Shown: positions 1 to 8,480 of the stretch, in pieces
Layout of the letters: each line of letters begins with the position of its first letter
Position numbering within the stretch: the stretch's first letter is position 1
Source: a virus
Lineage: Duplodnaviria > Heunggongvirae > Uroviricota > Caudoviricetes
IMG/VR virus record: IMGVR_UViG_648276668_000009
Location: 1-8,480 of that record
DNA length: 8,480 nt
Direction: 5' to 3' (one strand)
Notes under the pieces: generated by a model
Databases searched by the model: none
Told to the model about the DNA's origin: nothing
Seen by the model: the letters and a program-made list of their open reading frames with translations, nothing else
Position numbers and translations under genes: made by a program

Positions 1-56
1 ACACCGTTTCGTTACCGGACAGTGCGATCCCGCCAGGCTTCAGGGGGTAACTGACC

Positions 57-803
57 ATGAAAAATATTGCGACAGGCGGCGTTCTTGAACGTATCCGCAG
101 ACTGGCTCCGTCACATGTAACCGCGCCATTCAAGACGGTGGCGGAGTGGCGTGAGTGGCAACTTTCCGAAGGCCAGAAACGTTGTGAGGAGATCAACCGT
201 CAGAATCGTCAGTTGCGGGTGGAAAAAATTCTGAATCGCTCTGGCATCCAGCCATTGCACCGCAAATGCTCGTTTTCGAATTACCAGGTGCAGAACGACG
301 GTCAGCGATACGCGTTGAGCCAGGCGAAATTCATCGCCGATGAACTGATGGTCGGGTGTACAAATTTTGCGTTCAGTGGAAAACCTGGTACCGGAAAAAA
401 CCATCTGGCGGCGGCTATCGGGAATCGCCTGCTGAAAGACGGTCAGACAGTGATTGTGGTTACCGTGGCTGATGTTATGAGCGCCCTGCACGCCAGCTAT
501 GACGACGGGCAGTCAGGCGAAAAATTTTTGCGGGAACTGTGCGAAGTTGATCTGCTGGTTCTTGATGAAATTGGTATTCAGCGCGAGACGAAAAACGAGC
601 AGGTGGTACTGCACCAGATTGTTGATCGCCGGACAGCGTCGATGCGCGGCGTGGGAATGCTGACAAACCTGAACTATGAGGCCATGAAAACATTGCTCGG
701 CGCGCGGATTATGGATCGCATGACCATGAACGGCGGACGCTGGGTGAATTTTAACTGGGAGAGCTGGCGTCCGAATGTCGTCCAGCCAGGAATTGCGAAG
801 TAA
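57..803 (+). CDS. ydaV: DnaC-like replicative helicase loader (IstB-like AAA+ ATPase), phage replication protein
   Basis: Seen: 248-aa ORF, ATG at 57 preceded by GGGGG (44-48). Walker A '[15 protein letters not shown]' and Walker B 'DLLVLDEIG' in DnaC/IstB arrangement. From memory it closely resembles Rac prophage YdaV; the symbol is recalled, not verified. Confidence 0.85.
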
Positions 804-825
804 TTTTTACCGGGAGAAAAATTTA

Positions 826-1587
826 ATGGAGACTGTTTTTGACGCACTGAAAGCAATGGGAATAGCCACATCCATAGAACTTGCTGCGCGACTTGATATC
901 AGTCGTGAAGAAGTGCTGAACGAACTATGGGAACTGAAAAAGGCTGGTTTTGTTGATAAAAGCGCGTACACCTGGCGTGTGGCTGATAACAACGTTCAGC
1001 AGGAACAGCCAGCGCAGGCAGAACTGCCGGAAGAAACCACCACAGCAACAGTAGCGAAAATCTCAGAGTGCGATTTAACCGCGACGATTGAACAACGCGG
1101 ACCACAAACGGCTGATGAGCTGGCTACATTGTTTGGTACCACATCACGCAAAGTGGCTTCAACGCTGGCAATGGCAATCAGCAAAGGTCGTCTGATTCGC
1201 GTAAATCAGGGCGGTAAATTTCGTTACTGCATACCGGGCGATAATTTACCAGCAGAGCCGAAAGCAGCATCGGTAGCGGAAACTGATGGTAAGGCCTTTC
1301 CTCAGACCGCAGGTGTCGCGTTACCAGTACAGGAGGCTGCAACACAGGAAGAAATTAAAACAGATACTATGGGGGACATTGTGCAGTCACTACCATCGTT
1401 CACTGAAACGCGAGCCAATGACCTGATTTTACCATCGCTGCATATGGCAAACCGCGAACTGCGCCGGGCGAAAAGTCATGTCCAGAAGTGGGAGCGAGTC
1501 TGCGCCGCGCTGCGTGAGCTGAACAAGCACCAGGATATTGTTCGACAGATTACGGATTCTTACCGCCGTGTTGCATCGGAAAAGTGA
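826..1587 (+). CDS. Prophage DNA-binding protein with two tandem winged-helix-like repeats (DUF1627-like, YdaW-like position)
   Basis: Seen: ORF track frame 775-1587; I prefer ATG at 826 (METVF...) because GGAGA at 813-817 sits 8 nt upstream and 775-825 overlaps the preceding gene. Two similar segments, '[32 protein letters not shown]' and '[33 protein letters not shown]', suggest duplicated wHTH domains. Family assignment is from memory. Confidence 0.6.
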
Positions 1588-1602
1588 TTGCCGGAGGCGC
1601 TT

Positions 1603-2025
1603 ATGGCAAAAGTATTTACACAAGAAGAGCGGGAAAAAATTAAAGGGCAGGTGGTTGAACTCGTGCGCCAGAGCGGTCGTGAGATGTTACGGCAACTGGA
1701 AGCTAAAACAGGCGCGACAAGATATCTGATGAGTGTTCTCGCCAGAGAGCTGGTTGCCAGTGGCGATGTATATAACTCCGGCTACGGGTTATTCCCGTCA
1801 GAACAGGCTCGTAAGGATTGGCAAAATGCCCGCAAAAAACTATCCAGGGCAAAGGTGAAGAAACCATCTGTGGTTGATCCTGACCTTATCTGGTCATTAC
1901 CTGACGGAGAAATACGTCGCTACGACAGGAGTATGAACATAATCTGTCACGAGTGCCGGAAGAGTGAAGTTATGCAGCGTGTATTAGCATTTTATCAGGG
2001 AAATGTTCGGTATTTATTGAAGTGA
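1603..2025 (+). CDS. Hypothetical prophage protein (about 140 aa), function unknown
   Basis: Seen: ORF frame 1588-2025; ATG at 1603 preferred, with GGAGG at 1593-1597 and a 5-nt spacer, just after the upstream stop at 1585-1587. Basic C-terminal half with a CxxC motif. E. coli-like codon usage and GC. Confidence 0.55.
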   Translation: MAKVFTQEEREKIKGQVVELVRQSGREMLRQLEAKTGATRYLMSVLARELVASGDVYNSGYGLFPSEQARKDWQNARKKLSRAKVKKPSVVDPDLIWSLPDGEIRRYDRSMNIICHECRKSEVMQRVLAFYQGNVRYLLK

Positions 2026-2243
2026 TGATATTAGAGTGGATCAGTTCATATGAGAATTGACATTTCTGCGTCATAGAGTGAACCACTAGTGGGGCTATTA
2101 GTTTTATCCCTCAAGCCGAAGTTGAAAATCTGACCATACGTTTATCTTAAGAAAGTATTTCACCTCTAATCGCCAACCAAAAATCTTGTTAAATTTCGCG
2201 CCGTTTAGAGGTGAGGTTAATAGATTTTGATTACCTGACCACC

Positions 2244-3122
2244 CTAGAGTGTAGATATAAAACGTTGATAGTGCCTAAGCACCTTAGAAGACATAAATAA
2301 ATTTGGGTTAGTCATGAAGCAAGTCATGGCAATATTTTTTAATGCATTAAAATCAATATTGCTCTTGGCATTAGAGTGTTTTTTGCTCATTGTGAGTGTT
2401 AATTTAAGCACTAAATACTCCAAAAAATGGCCCTGGATTATAGAGAAACTTTCGAACTTGTTATTTTTGATATAATCAATTGCTTCCTCCTTGGTCACTA
2501 TTCCATTAGCTTTTTGCACTAAACGTTCAAATTCTATTTTGGAAATGCAGTGTGGGAGTGATGTATCAACATTGATTCCAAGTTTTCCTCCTTTGTCCGA
2601 TATCTTAAATAAAAAACTTCCTTTTTTTAACATCAATATGTTAAGCTTATAAAGTAGTGATAATCTTCTTACACTTTTGCGAAGTGTTTTTATCAAATCA
2701 TCATTCGCGGAAGCATTATTCATTGTAAGTAATGAAATCAAGTGCACACATAATTTTTTGCTCCAGAAATCATTTTCCCAACTGTATCCTTTAGTGAAAA
2801 AAATATTTCTAGAATTAATTCTATTTCCAAGTATATCTACATAGTCCCTGTCGACAATAACAAATTGATTACCTATGTTTTCAGCGACTATTTTGTCATG
2901 GTAATTAAGAGCATCTCTTTTGCTTCCTGCAATGTTAATTTTTACTTTTTTGCTAGAAAAAATATTAAACAGCGTTCTATAGAACTTTATGTCGTAGAGA
3001 TCATTATCTGGAGTGGCCGCTTCAGTTAAATCACTCACTTTCCCCTCAATGTAAATGATTAGATCTACATCATGGAAATGATGAATGGATGACAAACCAC
3101 TATTAGTCCTTGTAAAGGTCAT
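2244..3122 (-). CDS. TOPRIM/DUF4435-like nuclease effector, candidate AriB-like partner
   Basis: Seen: 292-aa ORF, ATG at 3120-3122 overlapping the upstream stop; GAGGA SD inside the upstream gene's 3' end. N-terminal '..DLIIYIEGKVSD..' (Glu26) and 'FVIVDRDY' (D91-x-D93) fit a TOPRIM Glu + DxD signature. Size, order and coupling to the ATPase match AriA-AriB as I recall it. Confidence 0.7.
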   Translation of the reverse strand: MTFTRTNSGLSSIHHFHDVDLIIYIEGKVSDLTEAATPDNDLYDIKFYRTLFNIFSSKKVKINIAGSKRDALNYHDKIVAENIGNQFVIVDRDYVDILGNRINSRNIFFTKGYSWENDFWSKKLCVHLISLLTMNNASANDDLIKTLRKSVRRLSLLYKLNILMLKKGSFLFKISDKGGKLGINVDTSLPHCISKIEFERLVQKANGIVTKEEAIDYIKNNKFESFSIIQGHFLEYLVLKLTLTMSKKHSNAKSNIDFNALKNIAMTCFMTNPNLFMSSKVLRHYQRFISTL

Positions 3123-4402
3123 TTGAGAAATTCCTCTATTTTTATAAGGTATTCTTGTCTTTTTCCTACAATATCAGGAGAGTGTGTTGCAAATATTATT
3201 TGGGCATTTGGGTTTATTTTTGATATTGATTCTATTAGCCCCTCTTGCCAGTTTACATGAAGAGATAACTCTGGTTCATCTGCTATGTAGATTGTATGAT
3301 GCATCTCTTGTAATAAAGCCTCGCCAAGTATTATTATCATTTGTTTCTCGCCGGATGAAAGGTCTTTTAAAACAACAGATCTCCCATCACGATTTCTTAT
3401 TGATAGTTCATTCTCTTCAGAAACAAAAAAGGTTTTCCTTCCATCAAATAATGTGTTTAGCAATTCAATAAAGTTATCTCTCGGACTGAATATTACTAAT
3501 TTGCTGTTCTGTAATGAACCATATGCACTTACCAACTCATGAGCTCTAATAGAATTAAATAAGACCATGAATTCATCAAAGGAAAGTTCTTCACTGGAAT
3601 CTCTTTTTTTGAGTATGTGCTCAACTCTTTGATAGAGTTCGTTTATTTTTCTGTCATATCTACGCTTTTCTAAGCCTAAAGTTCTAAATACATCACTTAA
3701 AGTTGACTTATCTTCATCAACATTTATTGCTATTGAATTGGTCGGCGAAATGCCTTTATTATCAATGACCGATAAAAAAACGTTTTTTTGAAAATCAATT
3801 GTTTGCTCTGCAAACCTTTGGTCTAGTAAAGAAAAATAGCGAACCATCTTGTTGTTTAATTCAAAAAGCTTAACATCGATAAGCGAGTTGTTTTTGTAGT
3901 TGCCTGCGTTATCATTTGAGAAATTATCTGCTCTGTGGACTGATAGCCACGATAGTTTAAACATTTCTGAAAATATTACATTCAATTCTCTAGAATGCAA
4001 TATATGATTTTTTATATACAGTTTTTTTTCATCGTCGTAATATCTACGAGGAGATTTATTGAACGAGTCGTGAAAAAAATATTCTGCTGGGCTTTGATCT
4101 GTAGTGCTTTTTTTTATAATGTACTTTATGACATTATTACTAATGTCCACTCCTTGTTTGTATACTTCAATTATAGGTTTTTTATTCTTCCCAACTTCTT
4201 TCATTACAATTCTAGCTGAAATGAAATCAATTCTATCTATTTTCTCTATATCACACATTAAAATAGCGGATATGAGGTCAATAATAGTTGTTTTGCCTGT
4301 ACCATTGACACCTATGATGAAATTGAAGTTTTCATTTACTTTAATATTAACATCCTTTTTTCCCCAAAGCCCCTGGATAGCAATGCTGCTGACTATGTTC
4401 AC
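3119..4402 (-). CDS. ABC/OLD-family ATPase, candidate AriA-like sensor of a PARIS-like anti-phage system
   Basis: Seen: 427-aa ORF with GTG start at 4402 and AGGA SD (rc of 4410-4413) 7 nt upstream. N-terminal Walker A 'GVNGTGKT' (aa 31-38); C-terminal ABC-signature-like 'LSSGEKQ', Walker B 'IYIADEPE' and H-loop-like 'ATHSP'. Strongly AT-rich relative to flanks. Stop overlaps the next gene's start by 4 bp (ATGA). Confidence 0.8.
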   Translation of the reverse strand: MNIVSSIAIQGLWGKKDVNIKVNENFNFIIGVNGTGKTTIIDLISAILMCDIEKIDRIDFISARIVMKEVGKNKKPIIEVYKQGVDISNNVIKYIIKKSTTDQSPAEYFFHDSFNKSPRRYYDDEKKLYIKNHILHSRELNVIFSEMFKLSWLSVHRADNFSNDNAGNYKNNSLIDVKLFELNNKMVRYFSLLDQRFAEQTIDFQKNVFLSVIDNKGISPTNSIAINVDEDKSTLSDVFRTLGLEKRRYDRKINELYQRVEHILKKRDSSEELSFDEFMVLFNSIRAHELVSAYGSLQNSKLVIFSPRDNFIELLNTLFDGRKTFFVSEENELSIRNRDGRSVVLKDLSSGEKQMIIILGEALLQEMHHTIYIADEPELSLHVNWQEGLIESISKINPNAQIIFATHSPDIVGKRQEYLIKIEEFLK

Positions 4403-4893
4403 ATTATTTTCCTTGTTTTATAAATGCAGTGATGAATGTGATTTATTCATTTTCGGTTTGAGACTTTTATCAGTTGCATAATTTAAACAATAAACAATAA
4501 CTTTACAAGCACTTAACATAATTTGGTGGAAATATTAGGCGGTTAGATTTCAATTAACAATTAACCTGACGGTAACATCATGATATTGTTGACTTTTGGA
4601 GGTGGGGGGTATCAGAGGCCTGTCTATCTCATTGCTCCATTATAATCAAACGTTTGTTAGTTAGATCGTTATCTACTTTTGCTCATCACTCAAAGCGGAT
4701 TGTCAAAGCTAAATGCACACTGCCTACACAAAGTGTTGGCTTGCGTCTGACTTAGCGTCTTTAAAGAAGTGCTGGTGGTGACGGGTTGTTGTGTCCCATT
4801 TCCACAGAAAAATCAGAGAAACTATAGCGGCTGTAATGGCAATTTATTGTCTTGCTGTTGTTCTTATGGACCGCCTTTCTGATTGATTTCATA

Positions 4894-4922
4894 TTGGCGA
4901 GGTAACGGGAGTTAAGTAGAAT
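4894..4922 (+). promoter_or_regulatory. Candidate hok/mok mRNA promoter (-35 TTGGCG, 17-bp spacer, -10 TAGAAT)
   Basis: Seen: TTGGCG at 4894-4899 and TAGAAT at 4917-4922. Predicted transcript start near 4930 ('GGTGCTTGAGGCTGTCTGCCTC') resembles the 5' end of plasmid R1 hok mRNA as I remember it. Confidence 0.35.
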
Positions 4923-4984
4923 GGCTGCGGGTGCTTGAGGCTGTCTGCCTCGGGCATGAACACCAAAGGCAGATAGAGAAAAGC

Positions 4985-5049
4985 CCCAGTTAACATTATG
5001 CGTCCTGCAAGACGCTTAACATTAATCTGAGGCCACATCTATGCTTTGC
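4985..5049 (-). ncRNA. sok: Candidate Sok-like antisense RNA (antitoxin) covering the mok start region
   Basis: Inferred from the minus-strand promoter at 5056-5085 and analogy to R1 sok (about 64 nt, antisense to the mok translation initiation region). The 3' end is approximate. Confidence 0.4.
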
Positions 5050-5247
5050 ATACGTAGATTAGCCTCTTACGGACCGAAAGGTCAAGGAGAAGCAGGCTAT
5101 GAAGCAGCAAAAGGCGATGTTAATCGCCTTGATCGTCATCTGTTTAACCGTCATAGTGACGGCACTGGTAACGAGGAAAGACCTCTGCGAGGTACGAATC
5201 CGAACCGGCCAGACGGAGGTCGCTGTCTTCGTAGACTACGAATCTAG
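5041..5247 (+). CDS. mok: mok-like overlapping reading frame (modulator of hok translation)
   Basis: Seen: 68-codon ORF starting 58 nt upstream of hok, overlapping it in another frame and ending just before the hok stop. This is the mok/hok arrangement of R1-type loci. Functional translation not provable from sequence. Confidence 0.4.
   Translation: MLCIRRLASYGPKGQGEAGYEAAKGDVNRLDRHLFNRHSDGTGNEERPLRGTNPNRPDGGRCLRRLRI
5056..5085 (-). promoter_or_regulatory. Candidate Psok promoter (minus strand: -35 TTGACC, 18-bp spacer, -10 TAATCT)
   Basis: Seen: rc of 5080-5085 is TTGACC and rc of 5056-5061 is TAATCT. It points leftward across the mok start codon at 5041, as the R1 sok promoter does. Confidence 0.4.
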
Positions 5248-5254
5248 AGAGTAA
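5099..5254 (+). CDS. hok: Hok/Gef-family membrane toxin (type I toxin), HokD/RelF-like
   Basis: Seen: 51-codon ORF, hand-translated as MKQQKAMLIALIVICLTVIVTALVTRKDLCEVRIRTGQTEVAVFVDYESRE, stop TAA at 5252-5254. Hydrophobic N-terminal transmembrane segment and conserved 'RKxLCEV/IR' core typical of Hok. Absent from the ORF track only because it is short. Confidence 0.85.
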   Translation: MKQQKAMLIALIVICLTVIVTALVTRKDLCEVRIRTGQTEVAVFVDYESRE

Positions 5255-5263
5255 GAGTGACCA

Positions 5264-5285
5264 GGCGAGGGATTTCTCCCTCGCC
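5264..5285 (+). promoter_or_regulatory. Stable hairpin in hok 3' UTR (9-bp stem GGCGAGGGA / TCCCTCGCC, loop TTTC), possible fbi-like fold-back element
   Basis: Seen: perfect 9-bp inverted repeat at 5264-5272 and 5277-5285, just after the hok stop. R1-type hok mRNAs carry a 3' fold-back inhibitory element. Confidence 0.4.
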
Positions 5286-5326
5286 ACCTCTGATGAGTCA
5301 GGCATCCTCAATGTACCCACACTTAA

Positions 5327-5349
5327 CCCGCTTCGGCGGGTATATTTTA
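5327..5349 (+). terminator. Rho-independent terminator of hok mRNA
   Basis: Seen: CCCGC-TTCG-GCGGG hairpin (5327-5340) followed by the T-rich run TATATTTTAT. Confidence 0.55.
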
Positions 5350-5722
5350 TCTGTGAATATTTTTATAAAAATAATGCCCACGCACAGCATAAAACAAAAA
5401 GTATTACAGATAAAAAAGGAACGTAATGTGCAGATTTGTTGTTTTCCATATTTACTCACCTTAATATGATTAACACTGATAGGGTTGTTATTTCAGCGGT
5501 TTTCAAATGAGATATTATGGTGATCTGACAAATTTGCATAACATTAAAATTTAATTTGTTTAACCGCTTTTAATAATAAGCGTTGTTTGTATCCCAGCAA
5601 TCTGTTGTTTGGTTTTTATTCCATTAAGGTGGGGGCTTTACACTGGAACCAGTTTATTTATACTTTATACGTCAGCCTGAACAACTGGCATCTGCTGCAC
5701 TGCGCCATCGAGAGATTGAGAA

Positions 5723-6322
5723 ATGGCGCATATACAACTGGTCAAACAAACTTCTTCTGGTTTACTTCTCCCGGCGACGCCGGAGAGTTGCGATTTTCTG
5801 CATCAAATCAAAATAGGTGAGTGGATACACGCAGACTTTAAGCGTGTGCGTAACTACGCATTCCACAAGCGTTTTTTCAAACTCCTGCAACTGGGATTCG
5901 ATTACTGGACTCCGGTCGGTGGGGCGATCACGCCTCGCGAACGAGAACTGCTGTCTGGTTTCGTTGATTACCTGTGCGAATCAGTTGGTCGGGAACACAC
6001 GCCAGCCCTGAGTGATGCCGCAGAGCAATATCTGAATACAGTTGCGACACGCAGAACCCGGGATACGGCATTGCTAAAGTCGTTTGAGACTTTTCGCGAG
6101 TGGGTAACCATTCAGGCTGGATTTTACACCGAACATTTTTATCCGGACGGTAGCCATGGGCGTCGGGCGAAATCCATCGCTTTTGCGAATATGGACGAAA
6201 CCGAGTTTCAGCAGGTTTATAAATCTGTTCTGAATGTGCTGTGGAACTGGATTCTGTTCCGTAAATTTTCCTCTCCGGAACAAGTCGAAAATGTAACCGC
6301 GCAGCTGCTGGAGTTTGCGTAA
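5723..6322 (+). CDS. DUF1367-like prophage nin-region protein (199 aa)
   Basis: Seen: ORF with ATG at 5723 preceded by a GAGA-rich stretch. Its stop overlaps the next start by 1 nt (TAATG at 6319-6324). Sits directly upstream of a YbcO-like gene as in lambdoid nin regions. Family name is from memory. Confidence 0.7.
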   Translation: MAHIQLVKQTSSGLLLPATPESCDFLHQIKIGEWIHADFKRVRNYAFHKRFFKLLQLGFDYWTPVGGAITPRERELLSGFVDYLCESVGREHTPALSDAAEQYLNTVATRRTRDTALLKSFETFREWVTIQAGFYTEHFYPDGSHGRRAKSIAFANMDETEFQQVYKSVLNVLWNWILFRKFSSPEQVENVTAQLLEFA

Positions 6323-6612
6323 TGGTGGATTTACGTAAAGCGGCGCGGGGGCAGATGTGCACCGTCAGAATTCCTGGCTACTGCAATCACGATCCGGAAA
6401 CGTCTGTGCTGGCGCATTACCGACTGGCGGGAACGTGCGGAATAGCGACAAAACCACACGATATGCAGGCGGCGATTGCCTGTAGCTCATGCCACGATCT
6501 AATCGACGGGCGGGTAAAAACCAGCGATTACACCAAAGAAGAATTACGCCTGATGCATGCAGAAGGTGTTTTTCGCACACAAGAAATCTGGAGAAAGGAG
6601 GGATATTTGTGA
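6322..6612 (+). CDS. YbcO-like DUF1364 protein (putative Zn-binding nuclease of lambdoid nin region)
   Basis: Seen: 96-aa ORF 'MVDLRKAARGQMCTVRIPGYCNHDPETSVLAHYRLAGTCGIATKPHDMQAAIACSSCHDLIDGR...' with Cys/His spacing typical of a Zn site. From memory it closely resembles DLP12 YbcO. Confidence 0.8.
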   Translation: MVDLRKAARGQMCTVRIPGYCNHDPETSVLAHYRLAGTCGIATKPHDMQAAIACSSCHDLIDGRVKTSDYTKEELRLMHAEGVFRTQEIWRKEGYL

Positions 6613-7151
6613 TTTACCCAACGAATACAGGAAAAAGCGGAGAACACCTTCGTCTCGCCACGCTGGAAAGTGTCTGGATTCAGGGCAAACTGCGTATGTG
6701 GGGGCGCTGGTCGTATATTGGCGGTGGCAGGTCAGGAAATATGTTCAATCAGTTGTTGGCATCCCAAAAATTGACGAAAACAGCCATCAATGAAGCCCTG
6801 CGCAGAATGAAAAAAGCGGGAATAGAGAAAGCTGAGCTGGAAGCGTTTTTGAGAGAGATGATCAACGGCAAGCAAAAGAGCTGGCTGGCGCATTGTACTG
6901 ATGCAGAGGCGTTATGTATTGATCGAGTCATAAGTGAGGTGCTGGCAGAGCATCCAGGATTGATTTGCATTCTCCGGCAACGCTATGAAGGGCGGGGGAT
7001 GACTAAGCGTAAAATGGCTGAATTGCTACATGATGCACACCCAGAGTGGTGTTTTAGCACATGCGAAAAACGGATTGCTAATTGGTTAGCTGTTGCTGAG
7101 TATGTCCTATATATTCCCATGCGTGAATCATTTGCTGAGAAAATGGCTTGA
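6609..7151 (+). CDS. Putative late-gene antiterminator (Q-like)
   Basis: Seen: GTG at 6609-6611 overlapping the YbcO-like TGA stop (GTGA) with a strong AGGAGG SD at 6595-6600. This start is preferred over the in-frame ATG at 6489, which lies inside the upstream gene. Function is inferred mainly from synteny (hok, DUF1367/DUF1364, then Q, as in Qin), not from a recognised motif. Confidence 0.5.
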   Translation: MIYPTNTGKSGEHLRLATLESVWIQGKLRMWGRWSYIGGGRSGNMFNQLLASQKLTKTAINEALRRMKKAGIEKAELEAFLREMINGKQKSWLAHCTDAEALCIDRVISEVLAEHPGLICILRQRYEGRGMTKRKMAELLHDAHPEWCFSTCEKRIANWLAVAEYVLYIPMRESFAEKMA

Positions 7152-7182
7152 TTTCTTACGTATAAACTGCTTCAATTTCGCT

Positions 7183-7186
7183 ATGC
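7183..7186. repeat. Left copy of 4-bp direct repeat (ATGC) flanking the IS, putative target-site duplication
   Basis: Seen: ATGC immediately left of the IS end (7183-7186) and ATGC immediately right of it (8436-8439). Confidence 0.5.
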
Positions 7187-7194
7187 TGAAGTGG

Positions 7195-8363
<1,169 letters not shown>

Positions 8364-8435
8364 TGGAGCACCTGTGTTGTTCTGAGGTGAGCATATCACC
8401 TCTGTTCAGGTGGCCAAATTCAGTGTGCCACTTCA

Positions 8436-8439
8436 ATGC
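8436..8439. repeat. Right copy of 4-bp direct repeat (ATGC) flanking the IS
   Basis: Seen: see left copy. Confidence 0.5.
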
Positions 8440-8480
8440 TTCGCAAAGCTGTATCGCGAGGCGAACAATCCCACGGATAC

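Follow-up and report, generated by a model that had tools for sequence, protein, structure and literature searches.

Anatomy of a Probably Complete, Prophage-Borne hok/mok/sok Cassette Related to hokW and hokD in Escherichia coli

Composition of the Locus

The sequence analyzed here (hereafter the window) is a stretch of 8,480 nt of viral DNA (Caudoviricetes; IMG/VR record IMGVR_UViG_648276668_000009, positions 1 to 8,480), and its segment at positions 4894–5349 carries on the plus strand a hok toxin gene (5099–5254) and an overlapping mok reading frame (5041–5247), which are located between a predicted promoter and an intrinsic terminator, and on the minus strand the predicted antisense RNA Sok (4979–5049). 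With a probability of about 0.88, this segment represents a hok/mok/sok type I toxin-antitoxin cassette that is complete, belongs to the prophage-borne hokW/hokD subgroup, and resides in a Rac/Qin-like lambdoid prophage of Escherichia coli. All elements of the cassette are present and intact, have homologs at related loci, and fold into conserved RNA structures. The elements listed in an initial annotation of the segment, i.e., a 51-codon Hok-family open reading frame (ORF), the mok-like frame, a plus-strand promoter candidate and a convergent minus-strand promoter, a 9-bp hairpin in the 3′ untranslated region (UTR), and the terminator, were all recovered by the analyses described below.

The hok gene appeared in the ORF list and encodes a protein of 51 amino acids (MKQQKAMLIALIVICLTVIVTALVTRKDLCEVRIRTGQTEVAVFVDYESRE), which matched the Pfam model HOK_GEF (PF01848; cut-off: 22 bits) with 81.1 bits (E = 4.3e-23) over profile positions 1–42 of 42. 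The protein is identical to Hok of E. coli T-HYM1 (RefSeq WP_000813259.1) and shares 49 of its 51 residues with HokW of the Stx2 phage 933W, the only differences being the last two residues (RE in the window, EK in HokW). The residues conserved among Hok proteins are present (C15, T17, L29, C30, E31, E40, and Y47-E48); in the published residue logo, the numbering of which is shifted by one relative to the window, these are C16, T18, L30, C31, E32, E41, and Y/C48 followed by Glu (bioRxiv 10.1101/2025.08.07.668861). Two short minus-strand ORFs (4889–5038 and 5144–5320), one of them antisense to hok, had no family matches and were set aside as by-products of the highly structured region.

The Rfam model RF01794, which is labeled “sok” and in fact models the hok leader, matched positions 4929–5101 of the plus strand over model positions 1–157 of 157, at a score of 104.9 bits (E = 1.2e-23; gathering score: 59). 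It was the sole Rfam match above threshold across the 8.5-kb window and identified a hok leader with the tac stem, the Sok target hairpin, and the hairpin of the hok Shine-Dalgarno sequence. A permissive Rfam search of the flanks (4400–5750) returned only sub-threshold noise (ceN48, P24, and CsrC) far below the respective gathering scores.

The predicted full-length hok mRNA has a length of about 421 nt (4929–5349, plus strand), with the +1 at 4929/4930 placed by alignment to the R1-type mRNA start and to position 1 of the Rfam model, which corresponds to 4929. Its predicted promoter (4894–4922) was called by a consensus scan with nine of 12 matches and consists of the -35 hexamer TTGGCG (4894–4899), a 17-nt spacer, and the -10 hexamer TAGAAT (4917–4922), the latter being common to 933W and the hokD-type loci. 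At the 3′ end, the intrinsic terminator ACCCGC-UUCG-GCGGGU (5326–5341), followed up to position 5349 by a run of T (AUAUUUUA), was identified by a terminator scan and in the minimum free energy (MFE) structure.

Folding predictions for the mRNA and for Sok returned the structures expected of a hok/sok system. For the full-length mRNA the MFE is -173.2 kcal/mol (z = -8.28 relative to shuffled sequences), and in this structure the tac element at its 5′ end (GGGUGCUUGAGG, 4929–4940) pairs with the fbi element (CCUCAAUGUACCC, 5306–5318) through 12 base pairs and one bulge. The ucb element (AAAAGCCCC, 4979–4987), the columns of which hardly vary across the family alignment described below, has two alternative partners, namely the region of the mok Shine-Dalgarno sequence in the fold of the full-length RNA and tac in that of the trimmed RNA. 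In RNAs trimmed in silico to position 5300 or 5295, positions 4929–4936 pair with 4981–4987 (AAGCCCC), which is the tac stem of the Rfam consensus; in an RNA ending at 5305 the tac-ucb stem had not yet formed. The MFE structure also contains at 5062–5093 a small hairpin (GACC-GAAA-GGUC) within a helix formed by the conserved CCUCUU and the hok Shine-Dalgarno sequence AAGGAG (5084–5089), and in the 3′-UTR the GC-rich hairpin with a stem of 9 bp (GGCGAGGGA-UUUC-UCCCUCGCC, 5264–5285).

The predicted Sok RNA (minus strand) is 71 nt long, and its coordinates correspond to those of sokW as annotated in 933W (1571–1641 of the 933W sequence in our locus set, L002). It is predicted to consist of a single-stranded 5′ tail of 15 nt, a long hairpin, and a terminal UUUU (-28.7 kcal/mol, z = -5.07). 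The putative Sok promoter (5056–5085, minus strand) was read from the sequence and consists of the -35 hexamer TTGACC (5085–5080), an 18-nt spacer, and the -10 hexamer TAATCT (5061–5056), as proposed in the initial annotation. The relatives have their Sok promoter at the same position; among 32 family members, 16 share the -10 hexamer TAATCT, more than any other, and 12 have TTGACC with an 18-nt spacer. On the mRNA, the Sok target hairpin (sokT, 5029–5066, plus strand; local fold of -13.5 kcal/mol) includes the mok Shine-Dalgarno sequence (GAGG, 5029–5032), which is located 8 nt 5′ of the mok start codon, and the start codon itself (ATG, 5041–5043). The hairpin has the same shape as that of the Rfam consensus, with a 9-nt loop (CUUUGCAUA) at 5044–5052, and the first six bases of Sok (GCAAAG) are complementary to loop bases 5044–5049. 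The UUUG in this loop fits the YUNR U-turn motif. Because of the score of the Rfam match (104.9 bits) and the z-scores of the mRNA fold (-8.3) and of the antisense fold (-5.1), these elements are considered to be non-random.

Conservation of the folds was assessed in a family set of 47 related loci obtained from contigs of one genome per species, of which the 32 with intact ends were aligned; percentages refer to the cells of this alignment. The MFE structure of the window was kept in 86.4% of cells, compared to 37–47% in slid controls, with 41 pairs being changed on both sides. The tac-fbi helix was paired in 88.8% of cells (slid controls: 35–53%), and its columns 33/456 switch between U-A (18 sequences) and C-G (12 sequences). 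Similarly high values were obtained for the tac-ucb stem (94.8%), for the helix sequestering the hok Shine-Dalgarno sequence (helix 8; 95.3%), and for the 3′-UTR hairpin (helix 17; 94.6%), in which three pairs were changed on both sides. Most of the covariation between tac and fbi was supplied by loci of Photorhabdus (L027–L043), in which GGGCGC is combined with GCGCCC. This genus harbors many close hok cassettes, with at least three separate loci each in P. temperata, P. cinerea, and P. tasmaniensis.

The mok reading frame (5041–5247, plus strand) comprises 68 codons, stops 7 nt short of the hok end, and starts 58 nt before the hok start codon and out of frame with it (+1 relative to hok). 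In comparison to 933W and the hokD-type loci the window has an extra T at position 5082, which shifts mok from being in frame with hok (57 nt) to being out of frame (58 nt), and which at the same time changes the -35 hexamer and spacer of the Sok promoter from TTGCCT with 17 nt, as in 933W, to TTGACC with 18 nt. The small hairpin absorbs the insertion by compensating changes, with GACC-GAAA-GGUC in place of UGCC-GAAA-GGCA. Most close relatives (933W as well as hokD-type, hokC-type, and Photorhabdus loci) have the in-frame arrangement, in which “Mok” is an N-terminal extension of Hok. The out-of-frame arrangement was found in the window, in five loci of the related set (L012, L014, L015, L026, and L028, the last two with shorter mok frames), and in the R1-type locus; within the hokW/hokD group the window thus belongs, together with L012, L014, and L015, to a minority. 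Since one indel gives both mok frames and a remodeled -35 hexamer and spacer of the Sok promoter, the family may tolerate two coupling architectures, and T5082 may represent a one-base switch that decides whether Mok is a separate, R1-like peptide or an N-terminal extension of Hok.

Residues Tyr47 and Glu48 of Hok are encoded by UAC GAA (5237–5242, plus strand), which contains the UACG motif of the adenosine deaminase TadA, and UACGAA was present in all 32 aligned family members. The 7 nt CUACGAA of the window allele are presumably identical to the anticodon loop of tRNA-Arg(ACG). The region was therefore considered as a mimic of the anticodon arm of this tRNA (stem UAGA/UCUA, loop CUACGAA), and this candidate was rejected as the local MFE structure prefers another hairpin of 6 bp that buries UACG; in the fold of the full-length mRNA the region of the Tyr47 codon is engaged in long-range pairing. 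A-to-I editing by TadA at UACG would recode Tyr to Cys and has been seen in the mRNAs of hokC, hokD, and hokE (PMC12214031; bioRxiv 10.1101/2025.08.07.668861). Editing of the window copy draws its plausibility solely from the conservation of UACGAA and not from structure.

Comparison with Known Systems

The closest known systems are the hokW/mokW/sokW loci of the Stx2 phages 933W and Sp5 (VT2-Sakai), with a nucleotide identity of about 91% over positions 4909–5328, and similar cassettes are found in many other lambdoid phages. The leader, the position and the 71-nt length of Sok, tac, ucb, fbi, and the 3′-UTR hairpin all have their counterparts in 933W. Apart from the C-terminus of Hok, the two loci differ in the mok frame, which in 933W is in frame, MokW being annotated there as HokW with an N-terminal extension, and in a G-U pair involving fbi in the window. 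They also differ in location, as the 933W cassette lies between L0139 and L0136 near 58 kb of the 61.7-kb genome, whereas the window cassette is located between replication and nin-type genes.

Identities of 92–93% over a whole region of 481 nt including the flanks of the cassette were found with intact hokD (relF)-type loci in Qin/Rac-like prophages of E. coli strains other than K-12. These loci share the position of the window cassette, with a variable cargo slot directly on the 5′ side and antitermination and nin-type genes downstream, and they differ in the C-terminus of Hok (FTAYEPEE versus FVDYESRE in the window) and in the in-frame mok with an offset of 57 nt. Two loci of the related set (L013 and L038) have no homologous 5′ leader, which we take to be the situation of hokD of K-12 downstream of relBE.

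As reference for the R1-type system (parB of R1 and IncF plasmids), a canonical parB sequence was used; it is 100% identical over 433 nt to p1658/97 and at least seven other plasmids and is not confirmed as the sequence of R1 itself. A locus of an IncF plasmid (L003) that encodes a Hok identical to that of R1 and had served as the first “R1-like” reference was discarded, as its mok is in frame at 57 nt. The organization of the window is R1-like, as had been stated in the initial annotation: the set and order of elements are the same, mok starts 58 nt upstream of hok in the same relative frame (70 codons in the R1-type locus versus 68 in the window), and pairing of the 5′ and 3′ ends of the mRNA is predicted for both. 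Blocks common to both loci are GCTTGAGGCT, GGCAGA, AGCCCC, TAGCCTCTTAC, CAAGGAGAAG, and TTACGAATC. The likeness is one of architecture, however, and the nearest kin of the cassette by alignment are hokW/sokW and hokD (91–93%); the nucleotide identity to the R1-type locus is only about 50% overall and is concentrated in the functional blocks. In addition, the Sok hairpin is longer in the window, and the R1 locus is plasmid-borne while that of the window is prophage-borne. For comparison, HokW is 44% identical to Hok of R1 (PMC8621323).

The 481-nt region was matched in 4726 of 5426 complete E. coli genomes, at a median of two places per genome. An identity of 99.8% (480 of 481 positions) was limited to HYM1 and T-HYM1, two sister strains from duck, and nearly all other matches in E. 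coli were 90–95% identical and annotated as “Hok/Gef family protein” or “hokD”. The single difference from T-HYM1 inside the cassette is at position 5006 (T in the window, G in T-HYM1), within the loop of Sok's terminator hairpin, a structure that doubles as a leader hairpin in hok mRNA; given this location in a loop, the polymorphism is probably neutral.

The initial annotation had emphasized that the copy is undisrupted, in contrast to many hok loci on the K-12 chromosome, and inactivation of the latter is indeed stated in the literature (PMC12214031). The cassette contains neither an insertion sequence (IS) nor a stop codon or frameshift, so this part of the claim stands. Its integrity is nevertheless unremarkable because at least 80% of the 481-nt region is covered by matches in 3925 of the 5426 genomes; “intact” is a meaningful label and yet is true of most copies. 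Damaged copies do occur in the related set, with a degenerate tac in L012, a replaced 3′ end in L016, and no homologous leader in L013, L038, and L043. In E. coli PCP06022 (L055, 4016–5279) a hok gene at the same prophage position is cut by ISEc52 and represents a natural IS-inactivated prophage hok.

The hok/sok family has been described since the 1980s and 1990s. It was lately surveyed over tens of thousands of genomes (2026 survey preprint). The locus is thus already known, its family, subgroup, RNA elements, and prevalence being documented in Rfam, Pfam, RefSeq, the annotation of 933W, and the literature (PMC8621323; 2026 survey preprint), and the allele-specific details (out-of-frame mok, the G-U pair at fbi, the RE C-terminus, and the polymorphism at 5006) are minor. 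The finding matters little beyond correct annotation, although it illustrates that, by careful reading, the complete layout of such a type I toxin-antitoxin locus is recoverable from raw sequence. In practice, annotations can be supplemented with mok, sok, and the regulatory elements, which are omitted by RefSeq, and the cassette can be used as a marker for the edge of a variable defense-gene slot in this type of prophage.

Proposed Mechanism and Putative Function

Transcription, processing, toxicity, and biological role of the window cassette are inferred, the mechanism from the R1 paradigm in combination with the sequence features of the window. According to this model, a weak constitutive promoter would give rise to the stable mRNA of about 421 nt, in which tac is locked to fbi and the Shine-Dalgarno sites of mok and hok are hidden, so that the full-length RNA would neither be translated nor be bound by Sok. 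Slow trimming from the 3′ end would remove fbi and allow the 5′ end to pair with ucb, by which the hairpin with the mok ribosome-binding site would become exposed. The short-lived 71-nt Sok RNA, transcribed convergently from about position 5049, would bind the loop of this target hairpin with its free 5′ tail, and the duplex would block translation of mok, and hence the coupled translation of hok, and would be cleaved by RNase III. Once the supply of Sok stops, which might happen by loss of the element, by transcription shut-off, or by prophage induction, the trimmed mRNA would be translated and the 51-aa Hok would damage the inner membrane.

Experimental information is available for hokW-sokW of Sp5. 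HokW arrests growth, and sokW RNA, which was detected by Northern blot and acts as antitoxin, prevents this arrest when expressed from its own promoter, partly via RNase III and Hfq (PMC8621323). After treatment with mitomycin C the sokW RNA vanishes and, dependent on RecA, HokW shows up in the inner membrane about 1 h before endolysin, and upon deletion of hokW-sokW growth arrest occurred about 40 minutes later and phage release was halved (PMC8621323). For this closest relative, earlier lysis and an about twofold higher release of phage upon induction represent the sole role with experimental backing (PMC8621323). By analogy with the 96%-identical HokW, the most likely role of the window cassette would be to hasten host death and lysis upon prophage induction, as this is the best-supported role in the hokW subgroup. 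Prophage stabilization and phage exclusion, as suggested in the initial annotation, are possible as additional effects, the former by analogy with plasmid-borne hok/sok and the latter with high-copy R1 hok/sok.

Prophage stabilization could also be the main role, with the cassette killing cells that have lost the element. Such post-segregational killing is the defining function of plasmid-borne hok/sok (bioRxiv 10.1101/2025.08.07.668861), and in a genome-wide survey hok was about fourfold enriched in prophages (23% versus 5% expected). We nevertheless regard it as rather unlikely to be the main role, considering that the growth of lysogens was unaffected by deletion of hokW-sokW, that the published phenotype concerns induction and lysis and not retention (PMC8621323), and that native chromosomal loci displayed no post-segregational killing (bioRxiv 10.1101/2025.08.07.668861).

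Several observations weigh against a functional cassette that assists lysis. The consensus promoter scan made no call for the putative Sok promoter, because its -10 hexamer fits the consensus at only three of six positions; the missing call was not taken as evidence for the absence of a promoter, given that the hexamers are at the conserved family position. At alignment columns 34/455 (positions 4933/5314 of the window) the G-U pair involving fbi is present in the window alone, the other 31 sequences having G-C, and this replacement slightly weakens the predicted tac-fbi lock. Native chromosomal hokA, hokB, and hokC were reported to cause neither post-segregational nor rifampicin-induced killing (bioRxiv 10.1101/2025.08.07.668861). 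Finally, an IS3-family element sits 36 bp beyond the end (position 7151) of the DUF1133/Q-like gene and may part the antiterminator from the late promoter and the lysis genes; if late expression is crippled in this way, the question of lysis assistance would not arise for this strain.

An alternative is that the cassette, while intact in sequence, is a physiologically silent selfish passenger, as was concluded for native chromosomal hokA, hokB, and hokC, which were reported not to be activated by rifampicin (bioRxiv 10.1101/2025.08.07.668861). The weak -10 hexamer of Sok would fit this alternative, and so would a need for low-efficiency TadA editing of Tyr47 to Cys for full toxicity, considering that hokD is edited at only 6% in K-12 (PMC12214031). 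However, HokW, which is 96% identical to the window protein, is toxic, and a phenotype of the native hokW locus could be measured in a lysogen (PMC8621323), and 42 of 45 diverse Hok peptides that were assayed were toxic (bioRxiv 10.1101/2025.08.07.668861). Moreover, compensatory changes accompany the conservation of all regulatory RNA elements of the window, a pattern that speaks for continued selection. We therefore give little credence to a silent passenger and retain the assistance of host death and lysis upon induction as the preferred reading.

Genomic Context

Except for the IS3-family insertion, the window is 99.97% identical (two mismatches in 7187 nt) to a segment of a Rac-like prophage of T-HYM1, in which the order of genes is ydaU, ydaV, DUF1627, DUF977, DUF4435, AAA ATPase, hok, DUF1367, DUF1364, and DUF1133. 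Directly upstream of hok the window contains a PARIS-like pair of genes (2244–4402, minus strand), which encodes an ABC/AAA ATPase of 427 aa (AriA; PADLOC, 1.2e-39) and a DUF4435 protein of 292 aa (AriB; PADLOC, 1.8e-12) in ORFs that overlap by 4 nt. An AriA ATPase is found beside a DUF4435/TOPRIM AriB, which is the arrangement that defines PARIS, and RefSeq labels the two proteins as AAA family ATPase and DUF4435 protein. A Pfam search with the 292-aa AriB-like protein gave no match.

The pair occupies a variable cargo slot (about 2030–4890) that extends from the DUF977 gene to the hok promoter in Rac/Qin-type prophages that are otherwise collinear (the window, L004, L053, L054, and L055). 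The hok cassette marks the right edge of the slot, because homology to the hok cassettes of phages starts at about position 4909. In place of the PARIS-like pair, the slot contains AbiH and a hypothetical protein in strain 382634_2f, DUF262, an AAA ATPase, and a hypothetical protein in E62, DUF262 and a TPR protein in NCTC9699, and a P-loop ATPase of the Sll1717 type in PCP06022.

The location of the cassette next to a slot with defense-type genes, in the window and in the four other strains, bears on the possibility that its main role is abortive-infection phage defense, in which shut-off of transcription by a lytic phage would deplete Sok and free Hok, perhaps alongside the PARIS-like system. 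A report of phage exclusion, to which the initial annotation had referred, does exist: protection against T4 was conferred by R1 hok/sok when carried on a high-copy plasmid (bioRxiv 10.1101/2025.08.07.668861, citing Pecota and Wood, 1996). This effect required high copy number, though, and the genome-wide survey revealed no enrichment of hok within 20 kb of defense systems (12% versus 9.4% expected at random). In addition, Hok matches no PADLOC model and hokW and hokD have no demonstrated role of that kind, so that we consider defense doubtful as the main role of the cassette. An even bolder proposal would be that hok/sok is the fixed right border of an exchangeable defense-cargo slot in Rac/Qin-type lambdoid prophages and might be co-selected with it, for instance because it acts as a backup killer upon transcription shut-off or anchors the exchange of cassettes. 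A search of the literature for a hok-adjacent defense hotspot in lambdoid phages retrieved nothing specific, and this proposal is a speculation that we deem quite unlikely to hold.

The IS3-family element (7188–8435, minus strand) has a length of 1248 bp, contains orfA (8061–8399) and orfB (7195–8034), and is absent from the T-HYM1 prophage. It is flanked by a 5-bp duplication, and similar copies are annotated as ISEc52 in RefSeq.

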